36,045 nt of DNA from a virus. Below, piece after piece: positions 330 to 33,379 of the stretch; the stretch's first letter is position 1; every line of letters begins with the position of its first letter. The translations under genes and the position numbers were made by a program. The DNA is taken from IMG/VR virus record IMGVR_UViG_3300031965_000093, positions 1-36,045 of that record. One strand, 5' to 3'. The notes under the pieces were generated by a model. It ran no database searches. It saw only the letters and a program-made list of their open reading frames with translations, and was not told where the DNA came from.

Positions 330-578
330 ATGATTAAAAAAGATAAAATGTATTGTTTATCTGAAATGGTAGACGAAAAAATGTTTAATTGGATAAGCGA
401 TTATAAGTCTTATAGAAATTTAGTTGAAAAAGATTTTTTTAAAGAAAATATTTTACAGACGGAAACCACAGGTACAGGAGTTGGTAAAAGATATTACATA
501 AAAGGTCGAAATATTATTAAATTTATAAATAAATACGGCGATGGATTATCGCTAAGAAAAACCAATGAAAAAAAATAA
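330..578 (+). CDS. Hypothetical early protein (82 aa)
   Basis: ORF directly after the promoter-like element and overlapping the next gene start. No family motif recognised. An alternative start exists at M7 (348). Confidence 0.5.
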   Translation: MIKKDKMYCLSEMVDEKMFNWISDYKSYRNLVEKDFFKENILQTETTGTGVGKRYYIKGRNIIKFINKYGDGLSLRKTNEKK

Positions 579-1314
579 ACCAAAAATTAGAGAACATAAA
601 GAGATTCAAGTTTCAGAACCGAGAGAGATAACACAAGTAGAAACTTTTATATCTCAAGCGATCGCAAACAACGTCCCAGTTGAAACAATGGAAAAATTGC
701 TTGCTATGAGAAAAGAATTAAAGCAAGAAAGAGCAAAGGAATTATTTGATGAGTCTATGTCGGGATTTCAGGGAGAATGTCCTATTATTAAGAAAGGAAA
801 AGACGGAGGTAAAACAAAAGGAGGAATGGTTGCTTATAGATATGCCCCTCTTGATTCAATAGTAAGGCAAACTAAAGACTTGATTAAAAAACACGGATTT
901 AGTTATTCAATACAAACTCAAACAGGGGAAGGTAAGGTATCAGTAACCTGTAAAGTAAAACATGTTGCTGGGCATAGTGAAGAAAGCTCGGTTGAAGTAC
1001 CTTTGGGGGCAAATACAGGTATAATGTCTAGCTCTCAAGTGGTTGCTTCTGCATTAACTTTTGCTAAGAGATATGCTTTCAGTAATGCTTTCGGAATACT
1101 AACAAGCGATGATGATGATGATGCAAACGAAACCAAAAAAGCTGATAAAAAAGTTTATTCAAATGCTGAAAAACTTTATGGAGTTATTGTTAAGGAAGAA
1201 GATCTCGATAAACTAATCGAGTATTCAGAAAAAATTAAAGTTTCAGAACTTTACAACAAAGAAGAAAAGAAAATGTTACAAGACTTAATAACAAGTAAAA
1301 TAGACCATGATTAA
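565..1314 (+). CDS. erf: ERF-family single-strand annealing protein
   Basis: Motifs VAYRYAPLDSIV, HGFSYSIQT and ALTFAKRYAFSNAFGIL followed by DDDDD. This layout is typical of the ERF superfamily, and the gene is adjacent to an exonuclease. Confidence 0.8.
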   Translation: MKKNKPKIREHKEIQVSEPREITQVETFISQAIANNVPVETMEKLLAMRKELKQERAKELFDESMSGFQGECPIIKKGKDGGKTKGGMVAYRYAPLDSIVRQTKDLIKKHGFSYSIQTQTGEGKVSVTCKVKHVAGHSEESSVEVPLGANTGIMSSSQVVASALTFAKRYAFSNAFGILTSDDDDDANETKKADKKVYSNAEKLYGVIVKEEDLDKLIEYSEKIKVSELYNKEEKKMLQDLITSKIDHD

Positions 1315-1927
1315 AATTCACGATGTAGATCAAAGATCGACTGAATGGTTTGATCTAAGAAAAAAATACCCTCTAACAGCCAGCAAAGGATTAGCAATAG
1401 CAACTAATGGTTCTGGGCTTGAAACTCTTTGTTGGGAATCAGTTGTTAAAAGAATGTCTTTAAATGATGAATTTTCTTATACTAACGACAATACGGAAAG
1501 AGGAAATGAACTAGAGCAAGATGCTTTAGCCGTTTACGAGCTAGAAACAGGCAACACGGTTGGAATAATCGGATTTATAACTGATGAAGATATTTCAAAA
1601 GTCGGTGGTGCAAGTCCTGATGGCTGGATAGGAGAAGACGGTAATTTAGAAATAAAATGTCCGAGTGATGTTAAGTTTCTAAAACTTCTCGCTGAATACA
1701 AACAAACAGGAACTGTTAAAGTAGAAAGTGGGTACTATAACCAAATGCAAATGCAAATGCTATTCGGTAATAGAAAGTGGACTGATTATGTAATGTTTAA
1801 CCCAAACTTTAAAGAAAATATAATCATCGTCAGAGTATTAACAGACCCAGTTACTTTTGAAAAAATAAAAATCGGACTAAAAAAAGGTGAAGAAATTATC
1901 AACGAAATTGAGAATAAATTAAAATAA
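1307..1927 (+). CDS. YqaJ-like (lambda-exonuclease fold, PD-(D/E)XK) recombination exonuclease
   Basis: N-terminal QRSTEWFDLRKKYPLTASK, then ASPDG...LEIKCP (D...E-x-K). It overlaps the annealase gene. Confidence 0.85.
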   Translation: MIKIHDVDQRSTEWFDLRKKYPLTASKGLAIATNGSGLETLCWESVVKRMSLNDEFSYTNDNTERGNELEQDALAVYELETGNTVGIIGFITDEDISKVGGASPDGWIGEDGNLEIKCPSDVKFLKLLAEYKQTGTVKVESGYYNQMQMQMLFGNRKWTDYVMFNPNFKENIIIVRVLTDPVTFEKIKIGLKKGEEIINEIENKLK

Positions 1928-1929
1928 TT

Positions 1930-2820
1930 ATGTCAGAAGAAATTAAATTAAATGAGGAAGATGTAACCAATGCAGTCGCAACTATATCGAAGTTTGATGA
2001 GATGAAATTATCTATATTAGAAATGGTATCAAAATATACTGCTATCAAATGCGATGATATTAAAAAAGCAGAGCAGATTATTGAAGCGACTAAAGGTAAA
2101 AAGGAGTTAAGAAAATTTGAGATTGATAATATAGAAAAGCCCGGGAAAGGAGCTAGAGATATATTTACTCAAGTTAATCGAGTTATTATGGCAGGTCAAA
2201 AAGAATTACTTGCTATAACAAACCCAGAAGTAGAAAGACTAGAGGCATTCATAAAGGAAGCAGATGATTTTAAAATCAAAGAAGAACGAAGACAATTACT
2301 TCCTTGGAGAAAAGAACAAATTTCTAAAATTGGTGATAAGGAATATATCACAAAAGATAGTAGATTTTATCTTGGCGATGATTACGAAACTGAATTGGCT
2401 TTGCTAGAAATGGACAACGATAAATTTACCGAATATCTTACTGGAAGACAAGAAAACAAAATTCAAGAAGACAAAAGACAGGCAGATTTAAAAGAAGCCG
2501 AAGAAAGAGGAAGAAAAGAAGCCGAAGAAAAAGCCAAAGCTGATGCAGAGGCAGAAAAAATAAAAGCAGAAAAAGAAAAAGAAGAAGCAATTACAAAAGT
2601 AAAACAAGAAGCAGAAGATCAGAAAAGAAAAGAGAAGGAAGACAACGAAAGAAAGGAAAAAGAAGCAAAAGAAGAAGAAGAAAAACTTTCTAAGAAAAAG
2701 AAATACCAAAAGTTCCTTGCTGATAATGGATATACAGAAGAAAACAAAGATGATTTTATTGCAAAAGATTTAGGCGATACGGTTGTCCTTTACAAAAAAG
2801 TTGGAGAGTTTAAAAAATAA
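1930..2820 (+). CDS. Hypothetical protein with a long Lys/Glu-rich coiled-coil segment
   Basis: 296-aa ORF. The purine-rich tract at about 2460-2700 encodes KEAEERGRKEAEEKAKADAEAEKIKAEKEKEE... No catalytic motif seen. Confidence 0.6.
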   Translation: MSEEIKLNEEDVTNAVATISKFDEMKLSILEMVSKYTAIKCDDIKKAEQIIEATKGKKELRKFEIDNIEKPGKGARDIFTQVNRVIMAGQKELLAITNPEVERLEAFIKEADDFKIKEERRQLLPWRKEQISKIGDKEYITKDSRFYLGDDYETELALLEMDNDKFTEYLTGRQENKIQEDKRQADLKEAEERGRKEAEEKAKADAEAEKIKAEKEKEEAITKVKQEAEDQKRKEKEDNERKEKEAKEEEEKLSKKKKYQKFLADNGYTEENKDDFIAKDLGDTVVLYKKVGEFKK

Positions 2821-3149
2821 TGAGAAAAATATCAAGTAAGGTAAAAAAAGAATTAGAAATAGAACCTGATGTTTGTGCTAGAGAAGAAGACGGTGATTGT
2901 GATGGTAGGATAACTTGGGAGCATACCATTATCTTTGCAGGCAGACAATTAGATAAGACTTGGGCGATTATTAAACTTTGTGAATACCACCATTCTGTAA
3001 ATAAATATCAGGATGGTGGAGATTTACAAAAAGATAAAAATGTTTGGATAGCTCTAAACAGGGCAACTGATGAAGAACTAACAGAAATAAGCAAAGCCAT
3101 AGATTATATAGAACTACGAAAAAGATTAAATGAAAAATACAATAATTAA
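2820..3149 (+). CDS. Cys/His-rich small protein, possible HNH/zinc-finger type nuclease
   Basis: C-x8-C-x-G-x4-W-E-H ... C-E-Y-H-H spacing (CAREEDGDCDGRITWEH...LCEYHHSV). The assignment is tentative. Confidence 0.35.
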   Translation: MRKISSKVKKELEIEPDVCAREEDGDCDGRITWEHTIIFAGRQLDKTWAIIKLCEYHHSVNKYQDGGDLQKDKNVWIALNRATDEELTEISKAIDYIELRKRLNEKYNN

Positions 3150-3492
3150 AATGCCAATACCCGAAAAGATTTCTTTAAATGTTGCTTTACGGAAAAATAA
3201 ATTTTGGCTAAATAGAAAAAAAGATTTGTATTATAAATATGTTCTTGCTCACTTGAGAAATTTAAAAATAAAACCTATCAATGAAAACCTATACCCGATT
3301 GATTTAATTTTTGTGTATACATTCAAAGGTAAAACTCTCGACACAACAAACTGCGGATTTATGTCTAAATTGATTGAAGACGGGTTTAGAGATTCAGGGT
3401 TTCTAAAAAACGATGATTTAAGATATGTAGAATCATCAAAAAACATTGTTAAAAAAGGTAAAATTGATGAGGTAAAAATAATTATAAAATGA
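3130..3492 (+). CDS. rusA: RusA-like Holliday-junction resolvase
   Basis: LDTTNCGFMSKLIEDGFRDSGFLKNDDLRYV matches the RusA D-x-D-N...K...D...DD pattern. The size (about 115 aa) fits. An alternative start exists at 3151. Confidence 0.55.
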   Translation: MKNTIIKMPIPEKISLNVALRKNKFWLNRKKDLYYKYVLAHLRNLKIKPINENLYPIDLIFVYTFKGKTLDTTNCGFMSKLIEDGFRDSGFLKNDDLRYVESSKNIVKKGKIDEVKIIIK

Positions 3493-4064
3493 AAACCCAA
3501 TTATTCGCACAAAAAAAGGGATATAAAATAATTCAAGATGACCATTTAAAAATGGATTTAGTGGAATGGCCAGACGGAACAGTAATAATGAAACCATACG
3601 AAAAAGAAAGTATGGAAGAAAGAAGATTTTTTGAAGGTCCATTAAAACAATACTGGTTTCTCCAAATTGGTATTGGAAATCACGAAACCTATGTTGATGC
3701 AAGAGAAGAAATGAAAGAACAGTTTAACACAGGATATAGGAGAGATAAGAATGGAGAATTAAAAACATACGGTAAAAGTACCAAAGGTCTATCAAATAAG
3801 GGTTTTAGAGAGTTTCTAGGGCGTATAGAGAGATATTTCGAGGAGAATGGATACATATACCCAAACAGCGAAGATTATAACAGGTGGGTCAATTCTGCCC
3901 CTCTCAAGGGGGAATTATACCCGAGGATAATACCGTTAGTTAGAAATTACATCATAATGTTAAATGAGGTCGATAAAGAAAAATACAAAAAATGGGTGAA
4001 AATAAATAATAAATTAATTCAAAATTGTATTAATCAATCTAAAAAATATGGAAAAATTAATTAA
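3489..4064 (+). CDS. Hypothetical protein (191 aa)
   Basis: Long ORF with an ATGA-type overlap with rusA. No family recognised. Confidence 0.6.
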   Translation: MKTQLFAQKKGYKIIQDDHLKMDLVEWPDGTVIMKPYEKESMEERRFFEGPLKQYWFLQIGIGNHETYVDAREEMKEQFNTGYRRDKNGELKTYGKSTKGLSNKGFREFLGRIERYFEENGYIYPNSEDYNRWVNSAPLKGELYPRIIPLVRNYIIMLNEVDKEKYKKWVKINNKLIQNCINQSKKYGKIN

Positions 4065-4281
4065 TAAACCAACTCAGTGTGACAAGATTTTAAAAGTACT
4101 AGAAGATAATACAGGAGAATGGGTAAATGGTAGATATTTTGTCCAGACTATGATGATAAGCCAATACCACGCAAGAATATTTGAGTTACAAGATAAAGGT
4201 TACAACATAGAATCCAGTGAATTTAAAGATGATTTTGGTTTCAAATCATACCGCTTAAAACCATCAGAAACTTTATTTTGA
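4048..4281 (+). CDS. Small putative winged-helix DNA-binding protein
   Basis: 77 aa. KILKVLEDNTGEWVNGRYF...ISQYHARIFELQDKGYNIES resembles a wHTH layout. Weak call. Confidence 0.35.
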   Translation: MEKLINKPTQCDKILKVLEDNTGEWVNGRYFVQTMMISQYHARIFELQDKGYNIESSEFKDDFGFKSYRLKPSETLF

Positions 4282-4373
4282 GTTATGCACATTTTAAAGT
4301 TAAATTATAAAATTTATAAAGTATAATATTAGCAATGCGAAATAAAAACAATTACAAATTAATAAAATTGTTG

Positions 4374-4453
4374 CCAAAAAAGGTATCATCGTTGCTGATT
4401 AAATTCAGGAAGTTTGTTTTTAGCTTCAAGCACAACGATGATACCTTTTTTGG
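4374..4453. terminator. Perfect 21-bp inverted repeat (4374-4394 / 4433-4453) with a 38-nt loop and A6/T6 flanks. Bidirectional terminator-like, or an origin/cruciform element.
   Basis: ccaaaaaaggtatcatcgttg ... caacgatgataccttttttgg. It lies in the 184-bp intergenic gap just upstream of the replisome-organiser gene. Confidence 0.55.
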
Positions 4454-4465
4454 TTATAAAAAAAT

Positions 4466-5176
4466 ATGAAAACTGCAATTATTAAAACCGATTTTTGGAA
4501 AGATGATAAAATCCCTGATTTAAATTCAGATACAAAGTTGCTTTATTTATGCCTCCTAACTAATCCTGATAGAAATACATCCCCAGCTTTTAAATGTAGT
4601 GACAGGATGCTTTCTGCATACACAGGATATAACAAAGATTTGATAAATATTTGCAGAAATCAATTAATAGAAAAAAAATTAATTATTTACATCAATGGTT
4701 ACTATATTTTGAATCATCAAGACTATGTTGAGCCAAAAAAAGGTAAATTGACAAAAGTAATATTAGATAAATATTTAGATGAATTACCTGAAAATATAAG
4801 GGTTAAAGCTCAAGAGATGCTCAAGAGTGGCTCTAGAGGAACTCTAGAGTATATATATAAAGATAAAGATATATATAATAATAAAGATATAAATAAGAAT
4901 AAAAACTATGAACAAAACTTCGAAAAATTTTATTCAGAATATCCAAACAAAAAATCAAAACAAAAAGCAAGAGAGAAATTCATTAAATTAAAAGTTGATG
5001 GGGAATTGATGGAAATGATAATGTCTGCTCTACGAAAACAAAAAAATACAGAACAGTGGTTAAAAGATAACGGTAAATTCATCCCACATCCAACTACTTG
5101 GTTAAATCAAGCAAGGTGGGAAGATGAGGTCGAAGATGTAAATGATTTTATTAAAAATAATACAGTAGCTTTTTAA
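4466..5176 (+). CDS. DnaD/replisome-organiser-like replication protein
   Basis: The N-terminus (IKTDFWKDDKI...LLYLCLLTNPD) and the C-terminus (FEKFYSEYPNKKSKQKAREKF...IPHPTTWLNQARWEDE) are typical of phage replisome organiser/DnaD-like proteins. Confidence 0.5.
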   Translation: MKTAIIKTDFWKDDKIPDLNSDTKLLYLCLLTNPDRNTSPAFKCSDRMLSAYTGYNKDLINICRNQLIEKKLIIYINGYYILNHQDYVEPKKGKLTKVILDKYLDELPENIRVKAQEMLKSGSRGTLEYIYKDKDIYNNKDINKNKNYEQNFEKFYSEYPNKKSKQKAREKFIKLKVDGELMEMIMSALRKQKNTEQWLKDNGKFIPHPTTWLNQARWEDEVEDVNDFIKNNTVAF

Positions 5177-5771: not shown

Positions 5772-5833
5772 TAAGAAAAATTATTAATTTAAAAAATATC
5801 CACATTTTGCAGGTTAAAAAATAATCAAAAAAA

Positions 5834-5842
5834 TGTTATAAT
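5834..5842 (+). promoter_or_regulatory. Extended -10 promoter element TGTTATAAT
   Basis: Perfect TGnTATAAT in an intergenic gap. The same 9-mer, also preceded by TTAAAAAATAA, recurs at 33365-33373. Confidence 0.5.
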
Positions 5843-5858
5843 GTATAAAAATAAACCA

Positions 5859-6095
5859 ATGGAAAATATAGATAAAATAGAAAAAATATTGTTAGCAAGT
5901 GATATTCTCTTTTCAAGAAAAGAAGATTTGATAACGATTGAATACAAAGAATGTAATAATTTCAATGAATTATTAAATTTAATAGGGTCTTTTATCTTGA
6001 ATGGTTTTTCTATAACAACAAACGGTAAAATAGAAAAAGATTTTAGTTTAAAAATAAACAACAAATTATTAATTAAATGGTACTACAATGAATAA
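5859..6095 (+). CDS. Hypothetical small protein, first gene of the glycan island
   Basis: The track ORF starts at 5841, but that ATG overlaps the -10 box. The in-frame ATG at 5859 (MENIDKIEK...) is more plausible. It overlaps the next gene by 8 nt. Confidence 0.45.
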   Translation: MENIDKIEKILLASDILFSRKEDLITIEYKECNNFNELLNLIGSFILNGFSITTNGKIEKDFSLKINNKLLIKWYYNE

Positions 6096-7203
6096 AAAAG
6101 TTTTAATTTTGGGAAGCTCTGGTTATATAGGAAATGCTCTTTTTGAATATTTACAAAATAAAGGATATGAAGTTAAGGGTGTTGATAATCAAATGAGAGA
6201 AAAAAATGTTGAATCAATCGGATCTAAGTCTATAACAAATAAAAAATATTTTCCTTTTCATCTTTTGGATATTGTAGAAGATAAAGATGATTTTAATTTG
6301 CTTATAAAAACATTTAAACCTGATGTAATTGTAAATCTAGCACACCAACCATCTGCTCCTTTTTCAATGATTGATTCTAAACACGCAATGGAAACTCAAA
6401 AAAATAATATTTTAGGGACTCTAAGTGTTTTATATGCCATAAAAGAGTATTGCCCTGATGCACATTTAATCCAACTAGGAACAGAGGGTGAATATTCTGC
6501 TGATTTATGGGATGGGAAAAAAATACCAGAGGGGAGCATAATGAAAGTATTTTTACCGAAAGAAAATATTGAATTTGACCAAGATAATTATGATGAGTGG
6601 GAAATCCCAACACCTCGCTACGGGGGAAGTTTCTACCACTTCTCAAAAATATATTCAGATTACAACATAGATTACGCTTGCAAACTTTGGGGAATAAAAG
6701 CAACAAATATTCAACAAGGAGTAATTTATTCTCACAGGTATAACACTAGACTTGATGTAGATAACTGGTTTGGAACAATAATTAATCGTTTTGTTGCACA
6801 GGCCGTATTGGGTATGCCATTAACAGTTTACGGAACAGGAGGACAAACAAGAGGATTTATTTGTTTACAAAACTCTCTTGAAGCCATTGAATTATTTATT
6901 GAAAACCCTGCCGACAAAGGAGAATTTAGAGTAATACACCAATCCACGGAGTCTTTGAATGTAATGGATATTGCAAAAATGATTCAGGAAAAAACTGGAT
7001 GTGAAATAAAATGTATTGAAAATCCTAGGATGGAAAAAGATAAAAATAATTTCACTTTTGACACTAGCACACTTGATAACCTAGGATTAAAACGTATTAA
7101 ATTTGAAGATGAGTTGCCTCATTTAATTAAAGTAATGGAAGAAAATAAAAATAATATTATCAAGGATGCTTTATCAATAGAAACATTAACAAAATGGAAA
7201 TAA
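6088..7203 (+). CDS. SQD1/SqdB/Agl3-like extended SDR (UDP-sulfoquinovose synthase homologue)
   Basis: GSSGYIGN Rossmann motif, VDNQMRE...SIGSKSIT, QPSAPFSMID, GTEGEYS, SFYHFSK (Y-H-x-x-K), WGIKATNIQQGVIYS, PLTVYGTGGQTRGF, GEFRV. These line up closely with plant SQD1 as I recall it. Confidence 0.8.
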   Translation: MNKKVLILGSSGYIGNALFEYLQNKGYEVKGVDNQMREKNVESIGSKSITNKKYFPFHLLDIVEDKDDFNLLIKTFKPDVIVNLAHQPSAPFSMIDSKHAMETQKNNILGTLSVLYAIKEYCPDAHLIQLGTEGEYSADLWDGKKIPEGSIMKVFLPKENIEFDQDNYDEWEIPTPRYGGSFYHFSKIYSDYNIDYACKLWGIKATNIQQGVIYSHRYNTRLDVDNWFGTIINRFVAQAVLGMPLTVYGTGGQTRGFICLQNSLEAIELFIENPADKGEFRVIHQSTESLNVMDIAKMIQEKTGCEIKCIENPRMEKDKNNFTFDTSTLDNLGLKRIKFEDELPHLIKVMEENKNNIIKDALSIETLTKWK

Positions 7204-7207
7204 AATT

Positions 7208-7780
7208 ATGAACGAAAAATATTGGCCAGAGTTTTATAAGAATAAAGAAATAAATAAACCTAGCGAATTTGCATTTTTTTGTTTCATGAATTTTTTAATC
7301 AAAAGAGAATACGACAATATCAGATTATTAGAAGTAGGGGCTGGGGATGGTAGGGATACAAAATTATTTTCACGGCACATTGAAGATTTGACAGTTATTG
7401 AACCAAACAATGAAAATGTAGAAAATATAGGTTGTATGTACCATAAAAAAAAATTTGAAAATTTTGAAAAAATATATCATGGGGTTAGATTTGATTATAT
7501 TTATGCACGGTGGTTTTTACATGCTGTATCGAAAGATGTTGAAGATAAATTAATCGATTTCGCCATAAAAAATAATTCGATTATAATGCTCGAATTTAGA
7601 ATTATAGGAGATAAACCTGATTATACCCACGAAAGAAGATTGATTGATTTAGAAAAGTTTATAAAAAAATTATTAGATAAAGGATTTGTTATAAAACATT
7701 TAGAAAAAGGAAAGGGGTTATCTAAGGTCGGAGATAATGACCCTTTATTAGCAAGAGTAATAGCAGAATACAATGGTTAA
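7208..7780 (+). CDS. Class I SAM-dependent methyltransferase
   Basis: Motif I LLEVGAGDGRDTKLF followed by an acidic loop VIEP. 190 aa. Confidence 0.6.
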   Translation: MNEKYWPEFYKNKEINKPSEFAFFCFMNFLIKREYDNIRLLEVGAGDGRDTKLFSRHIEDLTVIEPNNENVENIGCMYHKKKFENFEKIYHGVRFDYIYARWFLHAVSKDVEDKLIDFAIKNNSIIMLEFRIIGDKPDYTHERRLIDLEKFIKKLLDKGFVIKHLEKGKGLSKVGDNDPLLARVIAEYNG

Positions 7781-8327
7781 ACTAGAGCATATAAAAGAAA
7801 ATATAAGAGATGCAAAAGAGATAGCCGAAAAATTAAACTTCCCTATTATTCTTGATGGTGGTTCGCTCCTCGGAGCATACAGAGATAAGGGAGTTATCAA
7901 AGGCGATGAGGATGATGTTGATTTTGCCGTGCCTTATGAAGTGGCAGAATTTAAAATGTTGCAGATAATTAAAGAATTTGAAGAAAGAGGTTTTGAATTG
8001 TTTAGATTAAGACCGACTGTTATGACTTTCAAAAGAAATGAAACCAAGATTGATTTGCTTTTTTATAAATGGAGTGAAGATTGGGGTTGTAATTATTTAA
8101 CTCTTTATCACGATAAAAAACCTTTTGCTTTGATCGTTCCAGCAGGATACTGGCTTGATTTGTCAGAGATAGAATTTTTAGGCATTAAATTAAAATGCCC
8201 CAAAGAGATAGAAAGGTATCTTGAATGGAGATTCGGGGACTGGAGAACACCTGTATTAAGACCAAACTTTGGATTCCAAAGTTATTTAGAAAATGATTAT
8301 AACAAAGAACTTACACAATGTCTTTAA
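7773..8327 (+). CDS. LicD/fukutin-like nucleotidyltransferase-fold phosphotransferase
   Basis: ILDGGSLLGAYRDKGVIKGDEDDVDFAV matches the LicD G-x-LLGA-x-R...DDD-x-D signature. 8-nt overlap with the upstream gene. Confidence 0.55.
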   Translation: MVKLEHIKENIRDAKEIAEKLNFPIILDGGSLLGAYRDKGVIKGDEDDVDFAVPYEVAEFKMLQIIKEFEERGFELFRLRPTVMTFKRNETKIDLLFYKWSEDWGCNYLTLYHDKKPFALIVPAGYWLDLSEIEFLGIKLKCPKEIERYLEWRFGDWRTPVLRPNFGFQSYLENDYNKELTQCL

Positions 8328-9124
8328 TTAAAAAAGACAAAAAAATAGCAGTAATACTTCACACAACTTTCACTCGCTTTGAATATGCAAAAAAGACGAT
8401 AGAGAGTTTTATAAAAGACAAAAGATTTGTCCTTTATGTGTCCGATACAGGAGCAATAACACCTGAAAAACTAGATTATTACAGGGAGTTAGAGAAGAAA
8501 GGACACTATACTTTTATGACTGGTTGGGACACTTCACCTGCTATAACTAGAAATTTTTTAGTTGATAACGTAGAAGAAGATTATATATTTAAGATTGATG
8601 ATGATTTTGAATTTAACGACAAAGATGTAAAAGTCGCAGAGATAATAAAATTGCTAGACGAAAATCAAAATCTTGGTTTAGTTGGGATGTCAGTAGTAAG
8701 TGCAAAGGTAAAATCAAAATTTGTTTTCCATGCAGAAAGATTAACTGATAGTAAACAAGGAGATTTTATGAAACTAGATCCGATTGATTTAGAAAAAGTT
8801 AAAGAAAATATTTATTGTGATGTTACACCTGATTGCTGGATTGCCAAAAGAGAGATATTTCCTGATTGTAATTGGGACGAAAGATACCATGTTAGCGAAG
8901 GACTACACACAGATTTCTTTTTACACATTAAATTCAATACAACGTGGCGAGTAATGTATAAACCAGATAGCATAATGTATACTTTTAAATATGATGGCAA
9001 ATTTGATATATCAGAAAATAAAGGAAGTTTTTATAATCGCAAAAGATTTAGAAAAGTAAAAAATTTAGAAAATTTTAGTAGAAAATGGAGATTAAGAAAA
9101 GAAAATCCTATAAATCGTTGGTAA
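8318..9124 (+). CDS. GT-A fold (GT2-like) glycosyltransferase, paralogue of 11287-12066
   Basis: IAVILHTTFTRFEYAKKTIESF, FKIDDDFEF (DxD), VGM, HTDFFLHIKFNTTWRVMYKPD. The same motif order is found in 11287-12066. Confidence 0.55.
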   Translation: MSLIKKDKKIAVILHTTFTRFEYAKKTIESFIKDKRFVLYVSDTGAITPEKLDYYRELEKKGHYTFMTGWDTSPAITRNFLVDNVEEDYIFKIDDDFEFNDKDVKVAEIIKLLDENQNLGLVGMSVVSAKVKSKFVFHAERLTDSKQGDFMKLDPIDLEKVKENIYCDVTPDCWIAKREIFPDCNWDERYHVSEGLHTDFFLHIKFNTTWRVMYKPDSIMYTFKYDGKFDISENKGSFYNRKRFRKVKNLENFSRKWRLRKENPINRW

Positions 9125-9125
9125 T

Positions 9126-9866
9126 ATGATAAGTGGAAATAGAAAAAAAGAATATAACAAAGGTTTAATAACTGTCGCAACAGGAGAGTATAACGAATTT
9201 ATACCAAGTATGATTAAATCTGCAAAGGAATATTTCCATTGCCATTTTTATATCTTTACAGACAAACCTGAAATGTATGAGCATTTTAGCGATATAACAA
9301 TAGTAAAAATTGAGCATTATGGTTGGCCTAAAATGCCCTTGTTAAGATTTGAATTATTGCATAAAAATATAGATTTATTTAAAGAAAGTTATCTATTTCT
9401 TATTGATTCAGAAGCAATTTTTGAGAAACCAATTACACAGGCAATATTAGGGTATAGAGTGGCAACGCTCCACAGGAATATAACTCGTTTAAGAGATGAA
9501 TTTAATTATGAAACAAGACAAGAAAGCACAGCTTTTGTAGGAAAACACGAAGGGGAAAAATATTATGCTTGTGGTTTTGTTGGAGGACAAAAAAGAGAAT
9601 TTAAAAGAATGTGCAAAGTAATTTCTGAAAATATACGGACAGATATAAATAATGGTATCCGTGCAATTTGGGGTGACGAAAGCCATTTAAATAGATATTT
9701 GATAGATAATAGACCTGACGTTGTTTTACCGCCAAATTATATGTGTCCATCTACAAACTCATATTTTATACCTTTCATAAAACACAGAGATAAACAATTT
9801 AAAAGAGTAAACAAAGAAGACACAAAAAATTATTTAATAGTTAATAAAGAAGATTATAATTTATGA
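9126..9866 (+). CDS. GT6-family (ABO / alpha-1,3-Gal(NAc) transferase-like) glycosyltransferase
   Basis: ITVATGEYNEFIPSMIKSAKEYF, FYIFTDKPE, WPKMPLLRFE, FLIDSEAIF (in place of DVD), YACGFVGG, AIWGDESHLNRYL, LPPNYMCP. The motifs are collinear with vertebrate/bacterial GT6 enzymes. Confidence 0.75.
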   Translation: MISGNRKKEYNKGLITVATGEYNEFIPSMIKSAKEYFHCHFYIFTDKPEMYEHFSDITIVKIEHYGWPKMPLLRFELLHKNIDLFKESYLFLIDSEAIFEKPITQAILGYRVATLHRNITRLRDEFNYETRQESTAFVGKHEGEKYYACGFVGGQKREFKRMCKVISENIRTDINNGIRAIWGDESHLNRYLIDNRPDVVLPPNYMCPSTNSYFIPFIKHRDKQFKRVNKEDTKNYLIVNKEDYNL

Positions 9867-10588
9867 AAATACTTATAACAGGATCGGAGGGTTATATAGG
9901 ATCTCGTCTAAAAAAGAAAATACAAGATTTAGGAATCGGGGAATTATTTTTAATTGATTTGAAAAAAGGTAATGATTTAATGACTGCTAAACTTCCTGAT
10001 GTAGATATTGTCTTTCATCTATCAGCACAATCCGGTGCAATTCCATCAATAGAAAATCCAATTTGGGATGCTAGGACAAATATTTTGACGACGATAAGAT
10101 TGGCAGAACACTATAAAGGAAAAGCAAAAATAATTTATACAACATCAGGCGGAGCAAAAGACCCTGAAAGTCCGTATGGTTTGAGCAAAAAAGTTGGAGA
10201 AGAATATTTAAAAATGATACATAACAATACAGTAATTTGTCGCCTATCTTCTATTTATGGAGGAAAAGATAGGGGCGTGGTCGATAATTTTATAAGAGAT
10301 GAAGTTCCTACAGTTTTTGGAGATGGTTCTGCTGTTAGAGATTTTGTCCATGTTGACGATATTATTGAAGGACTAATAAAAGCAATGGATTGGGAAGCCG
10401 TAGAATATGAAATGGGTAGTGGCATAGGAACTTCTGTAAAGGAAATTGCTGACGCTACTGGAAAACAAATACAATATTTACCAGTAAGAAAAGGAGAAAA
10501 ACAAGAAGCAATTTTGCAAAACACAACACCTAATTGGAAACCAGAAATCGAAGTCTTATTTTATATTAAAAGTTTAACTAACAAATAA
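9863..10588 (+). CDS. Short NAD-dependent sugar epimerase/dehydratase (GalE-like SDR)
   Basis: ILITGSEGYIGSRL glycine-rich motif and YGLSKKVGE (YxxxK). ATGA overlap with the GT6 gene. Confidence 0.7.
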   Translation: MKILITGSEGYIGSRLKKKIQDLGIGELFLIDLKKGNDLMTAKLPDVDIVFHLSAQSGAIPSIENPIWDARTNILTTIRLAEHYKGKAKIIYTTSGGAKDPESPYGLSKKVGEEYLKMIHNNTVICRLSSIYGGKDRGVVDNFIRDEVPTVFGDGSAVRDFVHVDDIIEGLIKAMDWEAVEYEMGSGIGTSVKEIADATGKQIQYLPVRKGEKQEAILQNTTPNWKPEIEVLFYIKSLTNK

Positions 10589-10593
10589 ATAAT

Positions 10594-10773
10594 ATGAGAG
10601 TTAAACCAGAAATAAAAGAAACAGAAAACTTTGGAAAAATCGTCAGAATTAGTGATGTTGAAGGTTTCGGCGATTGGTTAAGGGGACAAACAATACCCTT
10701 TTTAGAAAATGATGAAAATCCTGAAGATTGGGCTTATTATGGGGATTATTTAAATTTTATTGATAAAAATTAA
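10594..10773 (+). CDS. Small hypothetical protein (59 aa, MRVKPEIKETENFGKIVRISDVEGFGDWLRGQTIPFLENDENPEDWAYYGDYLNFIDKN)
   Basis: One codon below the track cutoff. The start is embedded in the conserved TAACAAATAAATAATATG junction. Confidence 0.5.
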   Translation: MRVKPEIKETENFGKIVRISDVEGFGDWLRGQTIPFLENDENPEDWAYYGDYLNFIDKN

Positions 10774-10789
10774 CTAACTAATAAATAAT

Positions 10790-10954
10790 ATGAAAGAAAA
10801 AATAAAAGAATCCGAAATTAGTACTTCTCTTATAGAGATTAACTTGAAGTATTCCGAGTGGCAGAATATGTATACATTCGGTCGCTGGTTTAATATGAGG
10901 ATTTTTAGCTTTATATTTCCAACTGTATTAAAAATAAACATTACAAGGGATTAA
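10790..10954 (+). CDS. Small hypothetical protein (54 aa)
   Basis: The ATG is preceded by AAATAATATG. It fills the gap between neighbouring ORFs. No motif seen. Confidence 0.3.
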   Translation: MKEKIKESEISTSLIEINLKYSEWQNMYTFGRWFNMRIFSFIFPTVLKINITRD

Positions 10955-10968
10955 GTAAATAATTAAAT

Positions 10969-11196
10969 ATGAAAATAAAAGCAACATTAGAAAAAGTAAA
11001 CGAAGCATTAAATAAAATTAAAGAAGTTGGAAATATAGCAGTTAATGGTTCGGAAGGGAGTTTTTCAGCAAAAGGAGTTGAGGGGCGATTTTCTTTTGAC
11101 CAAGAAAACGAAATACTAACTGTAGTTATTGATGATAAACCTTGGTTAGCTTCTGATTCTATGATTGAAAGTGAAATTAAAAAGTTTTTTAATTAA
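10969..11196 (+). CDS. Small hypothetical protein (75 aa)
   Basis: Track ORF in the gene-dense + strand context. Confidence 0.5.
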   Translation: MKIKATLEKVNEALNKIKEVGNIAVNGSEGSFSAKGVEGRFSFDQENEILTVVIDDKPWLASDSMIESEIKKFFN

Positions 11197-11197
11197 C

Positions 11198-11260
11198 TTT
11201 GAGTCCCAAATTACTCAAAAAATTTACTGGTTGAAATAATCGTGGGGTGAAATTCCCCAC
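11198..11260 (+). terminator. Two tandem hairpins (tttgagt/actcaaa at 11198-11219; gtgggg/ccccac at 11242-11260), weak terminator or RNA-processing site
   Basis: Stems of 7 and 6 bp in a 90-bp intergenic gap. Neither has a clean T-run. Confidence 0.3.
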
Positions 11261-11286
11261 ATATTTAAAATTAAACATTTTAAACT

Positions 11287-12066
11287 ATGAAAAATAAATT
11301 AGACATACTAATAACAACATTTTTAAGAAATGATAAACTCGCAAATCTAGTATCATCAATCCCTGAAAAATATAAAGAAAGAATTTTAATTGGAGATCAA
11401 AACGAAATAAAAAATAATCAATATTGGGATAATCTTATTTATTTACCATATAACTGCGGACTGTCAGTCGCAAGAAATGAATTAGTCAGAGCAACCGAAA
11501 AAGAATTTGTTTTAATTTTAGAAGATGATTTTGAATTTACACACGAAACTAACATAGAGAAAATGATAGAACTTATGTCTATTTCGCCTGAAATTGGCAT
11601 TGTAGGGGGTAGAGTGCAACAAAACGATATAGATATACCATTTGAGTTTATACCAACCATAGAGGACGGAATTTTGTACCACAAAGACGATGGTAACGAT
11701 TGGAAAATTCACAATGGTATAATATATAAAGAAACAGGTTGTTGTCTTAATTTTATGCTTGTCCGTAGAGAAGTTTTTAAAGATGTAAGGTGGGACGAAA
11801 AATTAAAATTGCGAGAGCATGTTGATTTCTTTTTGAGACTAAAAAATACAAAATGGAAAGTATTATTTACTCCCGATGTAAAGATAAAAGATGCAAAGAC
11901 TAGACCGAGTGAAGAATACAAAAGAATTAAAAAAGAAAATCAAGATTTATCACTTCCTTATTTATTTGAAAAGCACATTATCCACAAAATTATATACAAA
12001 AACGGTTTTACTTATGAAATAAAAAATGGTATTATTAGTCATTATAAAAGCCCCATAAATAATTAA
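11287..12066 (+). CDS. GT-A fold (GT2-like) glycosyltransferase, paralogue of 8318-9124
   Basis: LDILITTFLRNDKLANLVSSI, LILEDDFEF (DxD), VGG, HVDFFLRLKNTKWKVLFTPD. Confidence 0.55.
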   Translation: MKNKLDILITTFLRNDKLANLVSSIPEKYKERILIGDQNEIKNNQYWDNLIYLPYNCGLSVARNELVRATEKEFVLILEDDFEFTHETNIEKMIELMSISPEIGIVGGRVQQNDIDIPFEFIPTIEDGILYHKDDGNDWKIHNGIIYKETGCCLNFMLVRREVFKDVRWDEKLKLREHVDFFLRLKNTKWKVLFTPDVKIKDAKTRPSEEYKRIKKENQDLSLPYLFEKHIIHKIIYKNGFTYEIKNGIISHYKSPINN

Positions 12067-12070
12067 AATT

Positions 12071-12520
12071 ATGAATATAAACCAAGCATTAATAGACCAA
12101 TTAAATAAACTCGTTTCAGAGGCAGATTCTATTCAAGATGAATTAAGTAAAAAGATAACTGAATCAAAGGAAGCTGGGAAAGAAAACTATATTGAAGTCA
12201 TGAGAGATGATGGAAAATTAAAAGAAGTTAAGGAAAGCGACCTATGGACAGAATACTTCTATTTAGGAGATAACGCAAAAAATCAGAGAGAAGTACTCCA
12301 AAAGAAATATCCTGAAGTTTTTTCTCTAGGTAATGAATTGGAAACAAGGATGAAGCTTTTGGAAACTTTTATTGCAGAAAATCTAGGATTTAGAGGAAGC
12401 ATAAGAATATCTGATATCGTTAACTTAACTTTTGCAGTTTCAGATTTTAGAGTGAAACAATATATTGAAGAAAACAAAAAATCTATAAAGGACAAAAAGA
12501 AAGATAAAGGACAAAAGTAA
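12071..12520 (+). CDS. Hypothetical protein (149 aa) with a Lys-rich tail
   Basis: Track ORF. No family recognised. Confidence 0.55.
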   Translation: MNINQALIDQLNKLVSEADSIQDELSKKITESKEAGKENYIEVMRDDGKLKEVKESDLWTEYFYLGDNAKNQREVLQKKYPEVFSLGNELETRMKLLETFIAENLGFRGSIRISDIVNLTFAVSDFRVKQYIEENKKSIKDKKKDKGQK

Positions 12521-12729
12521 AGGGCACTCCCCCTACAATTACATCTATTGACATAGTATTAGACCTATTCGGTGGAAGTGGAAGCACTCTAATAGCTTGT
12601 GAGAAAACAAACAGAATATGCTATATGAGCGAACTAGACCCAAAATATGCAGATACGATATGTGAGCGATGGTGTGAATATACGGGGAATAGAGATATAA
12701 TTAAAAATGGTGAAAAAATAACATGGTAG
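12508..12729 (+). pseudogene. C-terminal remnant of an N6/N4 DNA methyltransferase (ParB-methylase type)
   Basis: The frame is open from 12508 with no start codon and reads ...IVLDLFGGSGSTLIACEKTNRICYMSELDPKYADTICERWCEYTGNRDIIKNGEKITW*. This is the SAM-binding FxGSGST block, but no catalytic (D/N)PPY part lies upstream. Confidence 0.75.
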
Positions 12730-13292
12730 AAGAAATTAAAAAAGAATTAACACCTAAGCAAAAAACGCTTATAAAAAAGCCAGAAGAAAGACAAACTGGC
12801 AAGGAAGAACCTTATGCTTACACAATAACAGATAAAGTTTTTGGTAAATTTAAGGTATTAAATACAGCAAATGCATGGTGGCAAGATGAGAGAAAAGTTA
12901 AAGATTTAATTCAGGCTTATAAAATTGATGCTACTCACAAAGAATCGTGTGCTTATGCTGGAATTTCTATAAAACAATTAGAGTATTTTAATAAGATACA
13001 CAAAGACTTTTCAGGCATAATTGATGCTTGTAGGCAGATGCCTTGTTTAACCGCAAGAAAAACACTCGTTGAATCGTTAGACAAAGACCCAAACAAAGCA
13101 CTAGAATATCTAAAACATAAAAGACGAGATGAGTTTTCAACTAGAACAGAAAATATAAATACAGAAAAAAGTTTAATTGACGAGCAAGAAGAAAGATTAA
13201 AAAAATTAGAGCAAGAATTAAGAGAAGATGTTAAAACCACAACTGAAACAACTAAATCCGAGACGAAAGAAATATATCCTCCATCTTGTTAG
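12723..13292 (+). CDS. terS: Terminase small subunit
   Basis: The position is immediately upstream of terL. HTH-like CAYAGISIKQLEYFNKIHKDF and ALEYLKHKRRDEF are typical of small terminases. Confidence 0.6.
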   Translation: MVEEIKKELTPKQKTLIKKPEERQTGKEEPYAYTITDKVFGKFKVLNTANAWWQDERKVKDLIQAYKIDATHKESCAYAGISIKQLEYFNKIHKDFSGIIDACRQMPCLTARKTLVESLDKDPNKALEYLKHKRRDEFSTRTENINTEKSLIDEQEERLKKLEQELREDVKTTTETTKSETKEIYPPSC

Positions 13293-14652
13293 TCATTTTG
13301 AAATTGATGGTAAAAAAGGTGACGAGGTTATAACAGAGGGGCAACTAGTAATTGTCCATGATTTAGTATTCAGAGATAATAAAAGAGAACAAATAATCTG
13401 TTCAACTCAATATGGGAAATCACTTTGGGTTGCTATCGCTTGTGTATGGATTGCTTGTATTCAAGGAGAAATAGTATCAGTAATCGCTCCGAATAAAGAA
13501 AAGGCTAAAATTATAATGCGTTACTTTATTCAGCATATAGGAGATGACCAAAAGTTTTTTAATAAATTAGAAAAAGACAGTAGATTAGACAGGTTAAGGC
13601 AAGAGGAAAGTAAAGAAAGAATTATTCTAAAAAATGGTGGTGGTATATTCGTTGTTTCTTCACAAGAAAGAAATTCAAGTAAAAGTATTGAATCGGCTAT
13701 GGGACTTGGAGCAAGAATAGTAATTGGTGATGAATATAATTTAACATCAGATAATACAGAAGCAACAATATTCCGTATGATTGCTGGTAAAGGTAAAGAT
13801 GCTTTCTATTGCAAGATAGGAAACCCTTTTTATTCTAATCCGCCATATACCCACTTTTTAGATAGTTGGAATAATCCAAATTACGAAAAAGTTTTTATTG
13901 ATTATAAACAAGGATTAAAGGAAGGCAGATATTCAGAAGATTTTATTGAAGAAGCAAAAAGAAAGCCTTTGTTTGATGTTTTGTTTGGTTGTGAGTTTCC
14001 ACCTCTGGATGTTATAGATGAAAAAGGATTTAGGCCATTATTTATAGGAGATATAAAATACGGAATGAATCCAAGTCTTTTGAAAGAATTGATTGAAAAA
14101 GAAATTGAGAAAAAAGGAGAGTTAAAAATACCTGTTAAATTAGGATGTGATATTGGAGGCGGTGGGGATAAGAATGTATTCACTGCTCGTTGGGGTAAAT
14201 TTGCCTCTGTGGTGGCTGAAAACAAGTCAAACGACACAATGACTAATGTTGCAGAAATACAACGCTGTATGGAAGAATATCACATTAAAGACACCGATAT
14301 AAATGTTGACGATATTGGTATTGGTAGAGGGGTAGTAGATAGATGCCACGAATTAGGAATAAATGTAAATGGAGTAAGTGCCGGAGAAAAAGCAACAGAC
14401 CAAGAAACATTTACAAACAGAAAAGCCGAGATGTGTTGGGATATGAAATTATGGCTTGAAGATGAAAATAGCAGAATAGACGAAAGACCTGAATGGGAGC
14501 AAGTAAAATGGTTAAGATATAAAGTAAATTCAGAGAAGCGAGTTCAAATAGAAAGTAAAGATGATTTAAAAAAGAGAACACATAAATCACCGGACTACGC
14601 AGAAAGTCTATATTTGACATTTGTGGATAACTCATTTGTTGGTTTTATTTAG
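13228..14652 (+). CDS. terL: Terminase large subunit
   Basis: Walker A-like STQYGKS and Walker B IVIGDE. Nuclease-domain motifs GCDIGGGGDKNVFTARWG, VDDIGIGRGVVDRCHELG and SPDYAESLYL. Confidence 0.9.
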   Translation: MLKPQLKQLNPRRKKYILHLVSHFEIDGKKGDEVITEGQLVIVHDLVFRDNKREQIICSTQYGKSLWVAIACVWIACIQGEIVSVIAPNKEKAKIIMRYFIQHIGDDQKFFNKLEKDSRLDRLRQEESKERIILKNGGGIFVVSSQERNSSKSIESAMGLGARIVIGDEYNLTSDNTEATIFRMIAGKGKDAFYCKIGNPFYSNPPYTHFLDSWNNPNYEKVFIDYKQGLKEGRYSEDFIEEAKRKPLFDVLFGCEFPPLDVIDEKGFRPLFIGDIKYGMNPSLLKELIEKEIEKKGELKIPVKLGCDIGGGGDKNVFTARWGKFASVVAENKSNDTMTNVAEIQRCMEEYHIKDTDINVDDIGIGRGVVDRCHELGINVNGVSAGEKATDQETFTNRKAEMCWDMKLWLEDENSRIDERPEWEQVKWLRYKVNSEKRVQIESKDDLKKRTHKSPDYAESLYLTFVDNSFVGFI

Positions 14653-18152: not shown

Positions 18153-18172
18153 AATTAAAAAAATATTATGGA
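18153..18172 (+). promoter_or_regulatory. Shared 20-nt translation-initiation region AATTAAAAAAATATTATGGA (also at 21501-21520)
   Basis: Identical 20-mers span the start codons of the capsid and tail-tube genes. There is no SD-like purine core. Confidence 0.6.
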
Positions 18173-21500: not shown

Positions 21501-21520
21501 AATTAAAAAAATATTATGGA
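21501..21520 (+). promoter_or_regulatory. Shared 20-nt translation-initiation region, second copy
   Basis: Identical to 18153-18172. Confidence 0.6.
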
Positions 21521-32257: not shown

Positions 32258-32262
32258 AAATT

Positions 32263-33099: not shown

Positions 33100-33135
33100 A
33101 ATTTGTTGAAAGTTTATTAGTTAATAAAATAGATT

Positions 33136-33312: not shown

Positions 33313-33364
33313 ATGTGTTATACTTCTAGCACTAATAATTTTTACAGATACTATTAAAAAATAA

Positions 33365-33373
33365 TGTTATAAT
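33365..33373 (+). promoter_or_regulatory. Extended -10 promoter element TGTTATAAT (second copy)
   Basis: Same 9-mer and upstream TTAAAAAATAA context as 5834-5842. It is intergenic. Confidence 0.45.
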
Positions 33374-33379
33374 ATTGTT

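Follow-up and report, generated by a model that had tools for sequence, protein, structure and literature searches.

Introduction

Glycosylation encoded by bacteriophages has so far been known from a few cultured systems, namely the capsids of mycobacteriophages, the DNA of T-even phages and the surface conversion brought about by prophages. That phage-encoded glycosyltransferases (GTs) glycosylate mycobacteriophage capsids is stated in passages of PMC12363180 and PMC11256854, both citing Freeman 2023. Here we describe what appears to be a much larger, unsampled case, found in a 36,045-nt stretch of viral DNA (IMG/VR record IMGVR_UViG_3300031965_000093, positions 1 to 36,045), which was analyzed at its full length and is called the window below. 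Its glycan block encodes seven predicted enzymes, headed by a homologue of the sulfosugar synthase SQD1. The block is not peculiar to this genome, which lay beyond the view of an earlier note on this DNA; it is a conserved and modular cassette that occupies a fixed position in the genomes of a large family of uncultured phages. The cassette is very probably a functional glycan-building module. As a more tentative proposal, it is a vertically maintained, modular one whose anionic, variable glycan decorates the phage's own virion proteins.

Enzymes of the glycan block

The glycan block (Table 1) is 6.2 kb long, makes up about 17% of the 35,918-bp circular genome and lies on the plus strand. Four of the junctions between enzyme genes overlap by 4-10 nt, and the remaining ones are gaps of 1-5 nt. 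Its GC content equals that of the rest of the genome. Hydrophobicity peaks at no more than 1.21 in the block (Kyte-Doolittle, 19-mer), compared to more than 2 in the lysis genes and the tape measure protein, and no transmembrane (TM) helix is predicted for the block proteins. The earlier note had described a tightly packed plus-strand block of about 6 kb, roughly one sixth of the genome, with no obvious TM helix, and had named an SQD1-like synthase, a LicD-like enzyme, a GT-A fold transferase with a second paralogue, a GT6 enzyme and a short GalE-like epimerase; this description holds, and profile and structure searches support the sugar-enzyme assignments. For the S-adenosylmethionine (SAM)-dependent methyltransferase also named there, the GxGxG motif and the conservation among relatives speak in favor, while the match to Methyltransf_23 is weak (E 1.3e-5) and its 25.4 bits stay below the cut-off of 27.

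Residues 3-371 of the SQD1-like enzyme cover positions 1-384 of the NCBIfam UDP-sulfoquinovose synthase profile at E 2.5e-100, with the next short-chain dehydrogenase/reductase (SDR) family at 7.8e-17, and the Arabidopsis SQD1 structure 1qrr is matched at E 7.6e-66, with the next structure at 9.5e-16. The motifs GTEGEY/FYHFSK align with GTMGEY/FYHLSK of SQD1 and retain the catalytic Thr, Tyr and Lys together with the SQD1-specific His beside the Tyr; T132, Y183, H184 and K187 are invariant across 25 relatives. About 90 cluster representatives are 46-63% identical to this protein, on short, uncultured contigs of ~30-60 kb, many of them of ~33-46 kb, and those inspected are phage. Furthermore, a gene for phosphoadenosine phosphosulfate (PAPS) reductase, a sulfite source, directly adjoins the SQD1 orthologue in contig L007, lies two genes downstream of it in L192 and is found nearby in L015, a cellular locus. 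This linkage in three independent contexts speaks for true synthesis of a sulfosugar by the predicted enzyme. With the SQD1-like protein, tblastn against 50,697 GenBank phages returned only generic SDRs of at most 27% identity, plus one 31% match at 32% coverage. A single-protein scan of IMG/VR gave no match, and alignment-based scans were needed.

The L015 locus (positions 8042-13391; Paceibacterales metagenome-assembled genome (MAG) JBHIEB010000005) is a cellular-looking surface-glycan locus with an SQD1-like gene 40% identical to that of the window. It also holds a cytidylyltransferase-PAPS reductase fusion, a radical-SAM/B12 enzyme, a methyltransferase, NeuB, a CMP-sugar transferase-like gene and a Wzx-type flippase. 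Given this content, bacteria of the candidate phyla radiation (CPR) may display sulfoquinovose-containing glycans.

The two genes that follow, for the methyltransferase and LicD, are accessory. Homologues of the methyltransferase occur in L002 (61% identical), L011 and L192. LicD scores 41.1 bits against a PF04991 gathering threshold of 22.6, in two stretches, and carries the motif GSLLGAYR...DEDDVDF; it is 69% identical in L002, and its best NCBIfam match is the Mycoplasma glycolipid cholinephosphotransferase Mf1. Its homologue adjoins a cytidylyltransferase in L089, and in L090, where a methyltransferase lies directly upstream, a LicD homologue was assigned by hidden Markov model (HMM) farther upstream.

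The three GTs are of two kinds. GTa and GTb are paralogues (26% identity, E 2e-17), whereas the third belongs to GT6 (PF03414 E 8.5e-35, 120.5 bits versus a gathering threshold of 25; BoGT6a structure 4ayj, E 4.7e-31). The catalytic Glu of GT6 (E303 of human GTA) is kept, as WGDESHLNRY aligns with WHDESHLNKY. The metal site reads D-S-E, neither the mammalian DXD nor the bacterial NXN, and the NCBIfam Gltr_6 score is 143.5 bits versus a cut-off of 250, which makes it a divergent member of the family. The residues lining its putative donor pocket, YYACGFVGG, resemble those of the GalNAc-using GTA and BoGT6a. The best sequence match of GTb is human B4GALNT1 (E 6.9e-11, 23-24% identity), which is also the top Foldseek match of its AlphaFold2 model (pLDDT 90.4; E 2e-17, TM-score 0.72), followed by polypeptide GalNAc-transferases at 1.8e-10; the resemblance is suggestive, but no proof, of a beta-1,4-HexNAc transfer to a glycan. 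A word-indexed protein search with GTb returned nine proteins only. The short SDR matches PF01370 (E 1.2e-20) and, as closest structure, Thermotoga GalE 4zrm (E 1.8e-21), keeps the Gly-rich NAD motif and YxxxK, and has a conserved length of 241-248 aa among relatives.

Conservation of the cassette in a phage family

By means of GTb and major capsid protein alignments, family loci were drawn from IMG/VR, and their open reading frames (ORFs) were classed with HMMs built from the window proteins and their homologues. More than 500 relatives of the capsid protein were found at E<=1e-20; the best 120 are 54-66% identical, and many of them are situated on 34-38 kb contigs. The protein defines a large family of uncultured siphoviruses of ~34-38 kb. 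The earlier note had proposed to look for the gene order in viral metagenomes, and the order SQD1-(methyltransferase-LicD)-GTa-GT6-SDR-GTb-p149-TerS, where p149 is a conserved helical protein and TerS the small terminase subunit, indeed recurs in five other phage contigs (L002/L104, L011, L005, L007 and L192), with protein identities to the window of 25-78% and contig GC of 0.28-0.48. In L002/L104 (35.5 kb, GC 0.29) the complete series from SQD1 through methyltransferase, LicD, GTa, GT6, SDR and GTb to p149 is followed by a ParB-DNA methylase, TerS, TerL and portal, and L011 (37 kb, mis-binned as Planctomycetia) has the identical cassette gene set. The methyltransferase and LicD are absent from L005, and in L007 (GC 0.475) their place directly after SQD1 is taken by PAPS reductase. 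The longest variant, SQD1-HNH-PAPS reductase-methyltransferase-LicD-GTa-GT6-GT-SDR-C5 methylase-GTb, is found in L192.

The census of the family rests on 30 informative contigs, i.e. distinct contigs with p149 and enough upstream DNA. In 28 of these, spanning GC 0.29-0.53, a GTa/GTb-type transferase is situated directly upstream of p149. The two exceptions are L184, with a TagF-like glycerophosphotransferase, a pyruvyl transferase and a methyltransferase instead of the GT, and L171, with nothing within 1.9 kb upstream of p149. The contigs with TerS that lack p149 (L158, L168 and L183) also lack the GT; p149 thus co-occurs with the GT and is missing where the GT is missing. Accessory genes vary between phages and include SQD1, PAPS reductase, LicD, cytidylyltransferase, glycerol-3-phosphate dehydrogenase, TagF-like and pyruvyl transferase genes. 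For example, L089 combines LicD and cytidylyltransferase with a fused GT2-GTb, L118 has a glycerol-3-phosphate dehydrogenase, and L096 has GTa-GT6-SDR without SQD1. From this GT adjacency and accessory turnover, the slot between the replication module and p149/TerS is a glycan island that is hypervariable around a near-universal GT core. The common theme would be anionic decoration, by sulfonate, phosphodiester and pyruvate ketal in this family and by sulfate in a second, SU10-like one.

The recurrence of one gene order at these identities and GC values, together with a cassette GC equal to that of the genome, indicates that the cassette is old, intact and maintained under selection. A block lying inside host polysaccharide loci in close relatives, which the earlier note would have taken as a sign of recent capture, was not seen: among the best 80 SQD1 matches from 185,579 species-representative genomes there was no cellular polysaccharide locus with the block, and matches above 43% identity occurred only on short or phage-sized contigs. 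Cellular SQD1 homologues inspected or listed (Nitrososphaeria, Solirubrobacterales) are 34-43% identical. No match to the island was obtained by megablast against the 50,697 GenBank phages.

The p149 protein, 130-165 aa long in the family, had no match in Pfam, PHROGs, PADLOC, PDB (by sequence) or Foldseek. Its single-sequence model is a helix, a beta-hairpin and a helix, with a non-significant resemblance to prefoldin. Between p149 and TerS, positions 12553-12699 (plus strand) match the final 49 codons of a gene for a ParB-N6/N4 DNA methyltransferase (71% identity, E 2e-18). Since L002 (396 aa) and L090 (446 aa) have the full gene at this place, the stub is a deletion remnant. DNA-modification genes, ParB-methylases among them, are also found in or just after the glycan island of relatives, e.g. 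a C5 methylase that separates SDR from GTb in L192 (16198-17370), a SAM synthetase and a C5 methylase after the cassette in L007 (15549-19373), and Mom after the cassette in L184 (4323-5093). Two accounts are conceivable: accessory genes in general may collect at this slot, or the glycan and DNA-modification genes may be functionally linked.

SQD1 of the same clade (~50% identity) was also found in L003, L193 and L194, which are contigs of SU10-like podoviruses (31-43 kb). Their glycan island of 9-12 kb is situated between the major capsid and head-tail adaptor genes and opens with a protein of 757-788 aa, with GT2 and (faint) GT4 domains in L193 and L194 and tetratricopeptide repeat (TPR) hits in L003 only. 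It further includes a DegT aminotransferase, an acetyl-/formyl-transferase, GT1, GT2 and a sulfotransferase or APS kinase. TPRs serve in protein recognition, and a TPR-fused GT within a structural operon is the strongest contextual indication of virion protein glycosylation, one that extends to the window by analogy only, as this is a different phage family. Additional methyltransferase-GT2-GT9 genes are found among the tail genes of L193.

Genome setting

The window is a complete, circularly closed phage genome, with an exact 127-bp terminal direct repeat at 1-127 and 35919-36045 as is typical of circular assembly (k = 127 overlap), and its end is joined to its start in an independent ENA contig (L001). 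Every gene is on the plus strand, GC is about 0.31, and the layout according to PHROGs and Pfam is that of a siphovirus. Around 45 ORFs were scanned with Pfam or PHROGs, and a further ~10 short ORFs (44-153 aa, too small for an integrase) lay outside the scan. Among the ORFs scanned we found no integrase or repressor, no initiating phosphoglycosyltransferase, flippase, polymerase or ligase, as the earlier note had held, and no GtrA/GtrC-type membrane proteins.

A search of the window for tRNA genes gave no match. Shine-Dalgarno (GGAGG-like) motifs are practically absent from the 20 nt upstream of 53 ORFs, and the regions upstream are A/T-rich (TAAATAAT, AAAAATATT), which suggests a host with Shine-Dalgarno-independent initiation; Firmicutes seem unlikely. 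CPR lineages recur among the MAG labels of related contigs. Together, the labels and the lack of Shine-Dalgarno motifs hint at CPR/Patescibacteria or another lineage without such motifs as host of the ~36-kb family.

As regards the smaller elements of the block, the perfect extended -10 sequence that the earlier note had placed in front of it, TGTTATAAT, indeed occurs at 5834-5842 and is preceded by TTAAAA at a distance of 17 nt. The -10 sequence overlaps the ATG at 5841, and promoter-like sites in the AT-rich region are no commoner than in shuffled sequence (64 versus 54 +/- 7.6), and for these reasons it was dismissed as evidence of a promoter and is given little weight. No family match was obtained for orf84, and relatives have a non-homologous ORF of 110-118 aa at its place. 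In L002, the closest relative, the three small ORFs are missing, and neither they nor the proteins without assigned function gave a PADLOC match. A 21-mer, AACTAACNAATAAATAATATG, occurs at 10576-10596 and 10772-10792, and with two mismatches at 109-129; it terminates in the start codon of the first two small ORFs, thus flanking the 59-aa one. Its four matches compare to 0.01 expected by chance. A common signal for translation or transcription is one possible explanation, a junction stemming from modular insertion another. The hairpin ahead of GTb may separate the accessory genes from the GTb-p149 core.

Farther downstream, the 736-aa fibre gene (29081-31291, plus strand) contains about seven repeats of ~44 aa (..NGDIYA.V.NGDIYMQTGGTG.F.AL.QT.R.W..) with a beta-propeller-like look, and a 64%-identical fragment of it occurs in L105. 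With a GC of 0.40 versus 0.31 for the genome it lies in the sole GC-elevated stretch, which suggests an exchanged receptor-binding module. The candidate lysis region (31949-34051) encodes a 102-aa tail-anchored coiled-coil protein, a 278-aa papain-like peptidase with an amphipathic C-terminus, a strongly hydrophobic 58-aa protein with possibly two TM segments (holin-like) and a 163-aa protein with a signal anchor, the by-eye resemblance of which to 3D/RlpA-type proteins has no Pfam support at E<=0.01. Between the lysis genes and the recombination module lies a 460-aa protein (34647-36029, plus strand), in which ~170 residues of degenerate QNI(x)QNI heptad-like repeats precede a region that weakly matches DUF6745 (E 3e-5); a homologous fragment was found in L094.

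Table 1. Features of the glycan block and of the surrounding phage genome (positions in the window).
Feature	Position	Strand	Details
Erf, YqaJ, RusA and DnaD-like replication module	565-5176	+	PHROGs/Pfam
Promoter-like TTAAAA-17 nt-TG-TATAAT	5814-5842	+	Consensus match; 69-nt gap after replication module
orf84	5841-6095	+	84 aa; 78 aa if start is 5859 as in public gene call
SQD1/SqdB/Agl3-type UDP-sulfoquinovose synthase homologue	6088-7203	+	371 aa; profile, PDB, motifs
Putative SAM-dependent methyltransferase (accessory)	7208-7780	+	190 aa
LicD-family phosphotransferase (accessory)	7773-8327	+	184 aa
GTa, GT-A fold glycosyltransferase	8318-9124	+	268 aa; DDDFEF motif; PF00535 28.9 bits versus 23.3
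GT6-family retaining glycosyltransferase	9126-9866	+	246 aa
Short GalE-like SDR, putative UDP-hexose or UDP-HexNAc 4-epimerase	9863-10588	+	241 aa
Three putative small ORFs	10594-11196 (10594-10773, 10790-10954, 10969-11196)	+	59, 54 and 75 aa
G+C-rich hairpin CGTGGGGTGAAATTCCCCACA	11241-11261	+	In 90-nt gap before GTb
GTb, core GT-A glycosyltransferase, B4GALNT1 (GT12)-like	11287-12066	+	259 aa; EDDFEF; PF00535 35 bits
p149, conserved helical protein following the glycan genes	12071-12520	+
Terminase	at 13228	+	PHROGs/Pfam
Portal	at 14940	+	PHROGs/Pfam
Protease	at 16998	+	PHROGs/Pfam
HK97-type capsid	18168-19496	+	PHROGs/Pfam
Tail tube	21516-22502	+	PHROGs/Pfam
Tape measure	at 23212	+	PHROGs/Pfam
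Tail, LamG and fibre genes	up to 31291	+	PHROGs/Pfam
Lysis genes	31.9-34 kb	+	With TM segments

Proposed pathway and acceptor

Gene content, catalytic motifs, conservation, synteny and family distribution are as reported above; from them we infer substrates, step order and, above all, the acceptor. In the proposed pathway the SQD1-like enzyme would convert host UDP-glucose and sulfite into UDP-sulfoquinovose in the cytoplasm of the infected cell, and the short GalE-like SDR would provide UDP-Gal or UDP-GalNAc. GTb, as the family-wide core, would together with GTa and GT6, all of them soluble, build a short oligosaccharide. LicD would transfer a phospho-alcohol from a host CDP-donor (CDP-choline, CDP-glycerol or CDP-ribitol), with glycerol phosphate as the suggested group since relatives bring their own cytidylyltransferase and glycerol-3-phosphate dehydrogenase, and the methyltransferase would cap the product. 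All steps would be cytoplasmic, with an acceptor that is either soluble or attached peripherally. As the most likely acceptor, the virion proteins (capsid, tail tube or fibre) would be glycosylated before or during assembly, as in the mycobacteriophages Che8, Corndog and Myrna.

What speaks for the virion as acceptor is that all seven enzymes are intact with their catalytic motifs, and that the GT is near-core over a GC range of 0.29-0.53, suggesting diverse hosts, and fixed beside the packaging and structural genes, which fits a phage-intrinsic acceptor. The analogy with the SU10-like phages, the lack of lysogeny and export machinery among the ORFs scanned and the mycobacteriophage precedent also favor it. 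A bolder version is that the whole ~36-kb family cloaks its virions in a teichoic-acid-like anionic glycan, where the hypervariable island, as a viral equivalent of an O-antigen locus, swaps sulfonate, phospho-alcohol, pyruvate and methyl groups onto a GTb/p149 core; this we regard as possible but not probable.

A number of observations weigh against this proposal. The SQD1-like protein scores 336 bits, under the NCBIfam equivalog cut-off of 575, and is for that reason to be taken as a probable homologue or subfamily member and not automatically as an equivalog, and no sulfite-generating gene of its own was found in the window. The closest relatives of GTb and GT6 use glycan rather than peptide acceptors, and the LicD, TagF-like, cytidylyltransferase, glycerol-3-phosphate dehydrogenase and pyruvyl transferase genes of related phages are typical of wall teichoic acid and secondary cell wall polymer (SCWP) pathways. 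GTb showed no similarity to mycobacteriophage genes at E<=1e-5, and tblastn against the 50,697 phage records returned Salinibacter phages only. The Ser/Thr-rich C-termini of the capsid and tail-tube proteins (TKLTTAxASA; NLT..Y), considered as a target signature, proved uninformative, being conserved whether or not a GT was seen. Finally, the MAG labels of related contigs disagree (Shapirobacteria, Fermentibacteria, Planctomycetia, Gammaproteobacteria, Saccharibacteria and Dojkabacteria), and no one host can be assigned.

Some of these observations fit equally an acceptor in the host envelope, which is possible but somewhat less likely. The soluble enzymes would then modify lipid-linked precursors at the cytoplasmic face, and a host exporter would display the altered wall glycopolymer, be it a teichoic-acid-like polymer, an SCWP or an S-layer glycan, with the effect of blocking superinfection or of keeping progeny from sticking to cells and debris. 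The enzyme families of the window and its relatives (LicD, TagF-like PF04464, pyruvyl transferase PF04230, CTP_transf_like and GpsA-like) are those of teichoic acid and SCWP decoration, enzymes of the GT6 and B4GALNT1-like types extend glycans, and the turnover of accessory genes could follow host glycan diversity. The Wzx-type locus of the Paceibacterales MAG adds that cells in these habitats may display sulfoquinovose. Nor are the missing TM segments an argument against it, since TarP and similar prophage-encoded wall teichoic acid GTs are soluble GT-A enzymes without TM helices. On the other hand, no lysogeny module was found and there would thus be no lysogen to benefit, and neither a flippase nor GtrA/GtrC-type or lipid-carrier enzymes were found among the ORFs scanned. 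A near-core GT across GC 0.29-0.53 would need one conserved host acceptor, the SU10-like island sits inside the structural module beside a TPR-GT, and 17% of a 36-kb genome is a high cost for an exclusion function. The view of the earlier note that this is not classical prophage O-antigen conversion agrees with the absence of membrane, export and lysogeny functions among the ORFs scanned, and its two readings, virion glycosylation and host-envelope remodelling, are still the leading ones. Gene context tilts modestly to the virion, and sequence alone cannot separate the two.

It is improbable that the product has another or no dedicated acceptor, i.e. that a sulfoglycolipid or a free or secreted glycoconjugate reprograms host membrane or sulfur metabolism in the manner of an auxiliary metabolic gene (AMG). 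SQD1 feeds sulfolipid synthesis in most organisms, and the Mycoplasma enzyme matched best by LicD acts on a glycolipid. A UDP-sulfoquinovose synthase of a Mu-like virus is, in a passage of PMC7785012, treated as a speculative AMG. However, no GT4 sulfoquinovosyl transferase of the SQD2/SqdX type was found in the window or in the relatives examined, SQD1 is accessory and not part of the cassette core, and three GTs and an epimerase point to an oligosaccharide and not to a lipid head group.

Glycosylation of modified phage bases to evade restriction or other defences, which the earlier note had left out, is very unlikely. The DNA-modification genes that always accompany the cassette (the ParB-N6/N4 remnant in the window, the C5 methylases of L192 and L007, Mom in L184) would agree with it, as would a sub-threshold TET-associated-GT match of the GTb homologue in one relative, L118 (19.5 bits versus 27.5). 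Neither the window nor the Pfam lists of the relatives examined yielded a hydroxymethylase, a thymidylate-synthase-like enzyme or a TET/JBP dioxygenase, though, and there would hence be no hydroxyl on a base to accept the sugar. GT6, a GT12-like GT, LicD, TagF-like and pyruvyl transferase together imply an oligosaccharide far larger than known DNA sugars, and the proximity may be due to the slot being a general accessory-gene hot spot.

That the block is passive, recently captured and decaying host cargo is hardly credible and already contradicted by the comparative data, for the decayed methyltransferase remnant next to it and the unconserved small ORFs are outweighed by seven enzyme genes of full length relative to their orthologues with catalytic residues kept, by synteny across phages at 25-78% protein identity, by a GC matching the genome and by the fact that none of the best 80 SQD1 matches led to a cellular locus carrying the block.

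Should virion proteins be the acceptor, shielding by glycans or adhesion through them would count as a general strategy of phages beyond Actinobacteria, and sulfonated sugars would join viral glycobiology; the cloaking version would provide the first example of a bacterial virus bearing a sulfoquinovose-containing glycoconjugate. With a host wall acceptor, it would instead be a multi-enzyme envelope-remodelling programme in an apparently non-temperate phage. A family with hundreds of metagenomic capsid relatives keeps a GT beside its packaging genes in most sampled members and appears to diversify its sugars much like bacterial O-antigens do, and the cassette ties viral genes to sulfoquinovose cycling. 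The compact, soluble enzymes (UDP-sulfoquinovose synthase, minimal GalE, non-DXD GT6 and bacterial-type GT12-like) are possibly of use in glycoengineering.

Comparison with known systems

Full-text literature searches returned no description of the cassette or of the family's glycan island, consistent with the statement in the earlier note that this enzyme combination is undescribed for a 36-kb phage. The closest counterpart is virion glycosylation in the mycobacteriophages Che8, Corndog and Myrna, which likewise employs small sets of soluble GT-A enzymes, with an O-methyltransferase in some mycobacteriophages, and decorates capsid and tail proteins in the cytoplasm without lipid carrier, flippase or ligase. 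By tblastn, GTb has no detectable homology to Che8 gp110 or Corndog gp38, and the likeness is thus one of working principle only. Unlike those systems, the cassette of the window would also make its own donors (by the SQD1-like enzyme and the GalE-like SDR) and adds LicD and GT6, and its genes are situated just upstream of the terminase instead of at the right end of the genome.

Prophage modification of wall teichoic acid or O-antigen, as by S. aureus TarP and the three-component Gtr systems, is similar in that phage-borne GT-A enzymes, soluble in the TarP type, alter a surface glycan. The window differs in having neither integrase or repressor nor GtrA/GtrC among the ORFs scanned, in having all genes on one strand, in encoding seven enzymes rather than one to three, and in that its GT is near-core in a phage family and not a moron of individual prophages.

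At the level of single enzymes, the SQD1-like protein shares with SQD1 of plants, SqdB of bacteria and Agl3 of the Sulfolobus N-glycan its full-length homology and the Thr/Tyr-His/Lys set; an association with PAPS reductase is seen in relatives. Agl3 sets a precedent for sulfoquinovose destined for a protein-linked glycan and not for a lipid. The SQD1-like protein departs from these enzymes in its 336 versus 575 bits, in an identity of at most 43% to the cellular homologues inspected, in lacking an SQD2/SqdX partner and in being encoded by a tailed phage. GT6 genes were already known from cyanomyoviruses and two uncultured phage genomes of ~640 kb. As in BoGT6a of Bacteroides ovatus and GT6 of cyanophage P-SSM2, the domain is compact (~245 aa), without a TM stem and with a conserved catalytic Glu, but it has D-S-E in place of the NXN of BoGT6a or the DVD of mammals and is embedded in the multi-enzyme cassette of a 36-kb siphovirus. 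GTb has its best match, both in sequence and in structure, in human B4GALNT1 (GT12, GM2/GD2 synthase), from which it differs by its low identity and by consisting of the catalytic domain only. Phage-encoded modules for glycan modification are thus already known, and what is new here is the sulfosugar synthase, the GT12-like core enzyme, its partner p149 and the family-wide hypervariability.

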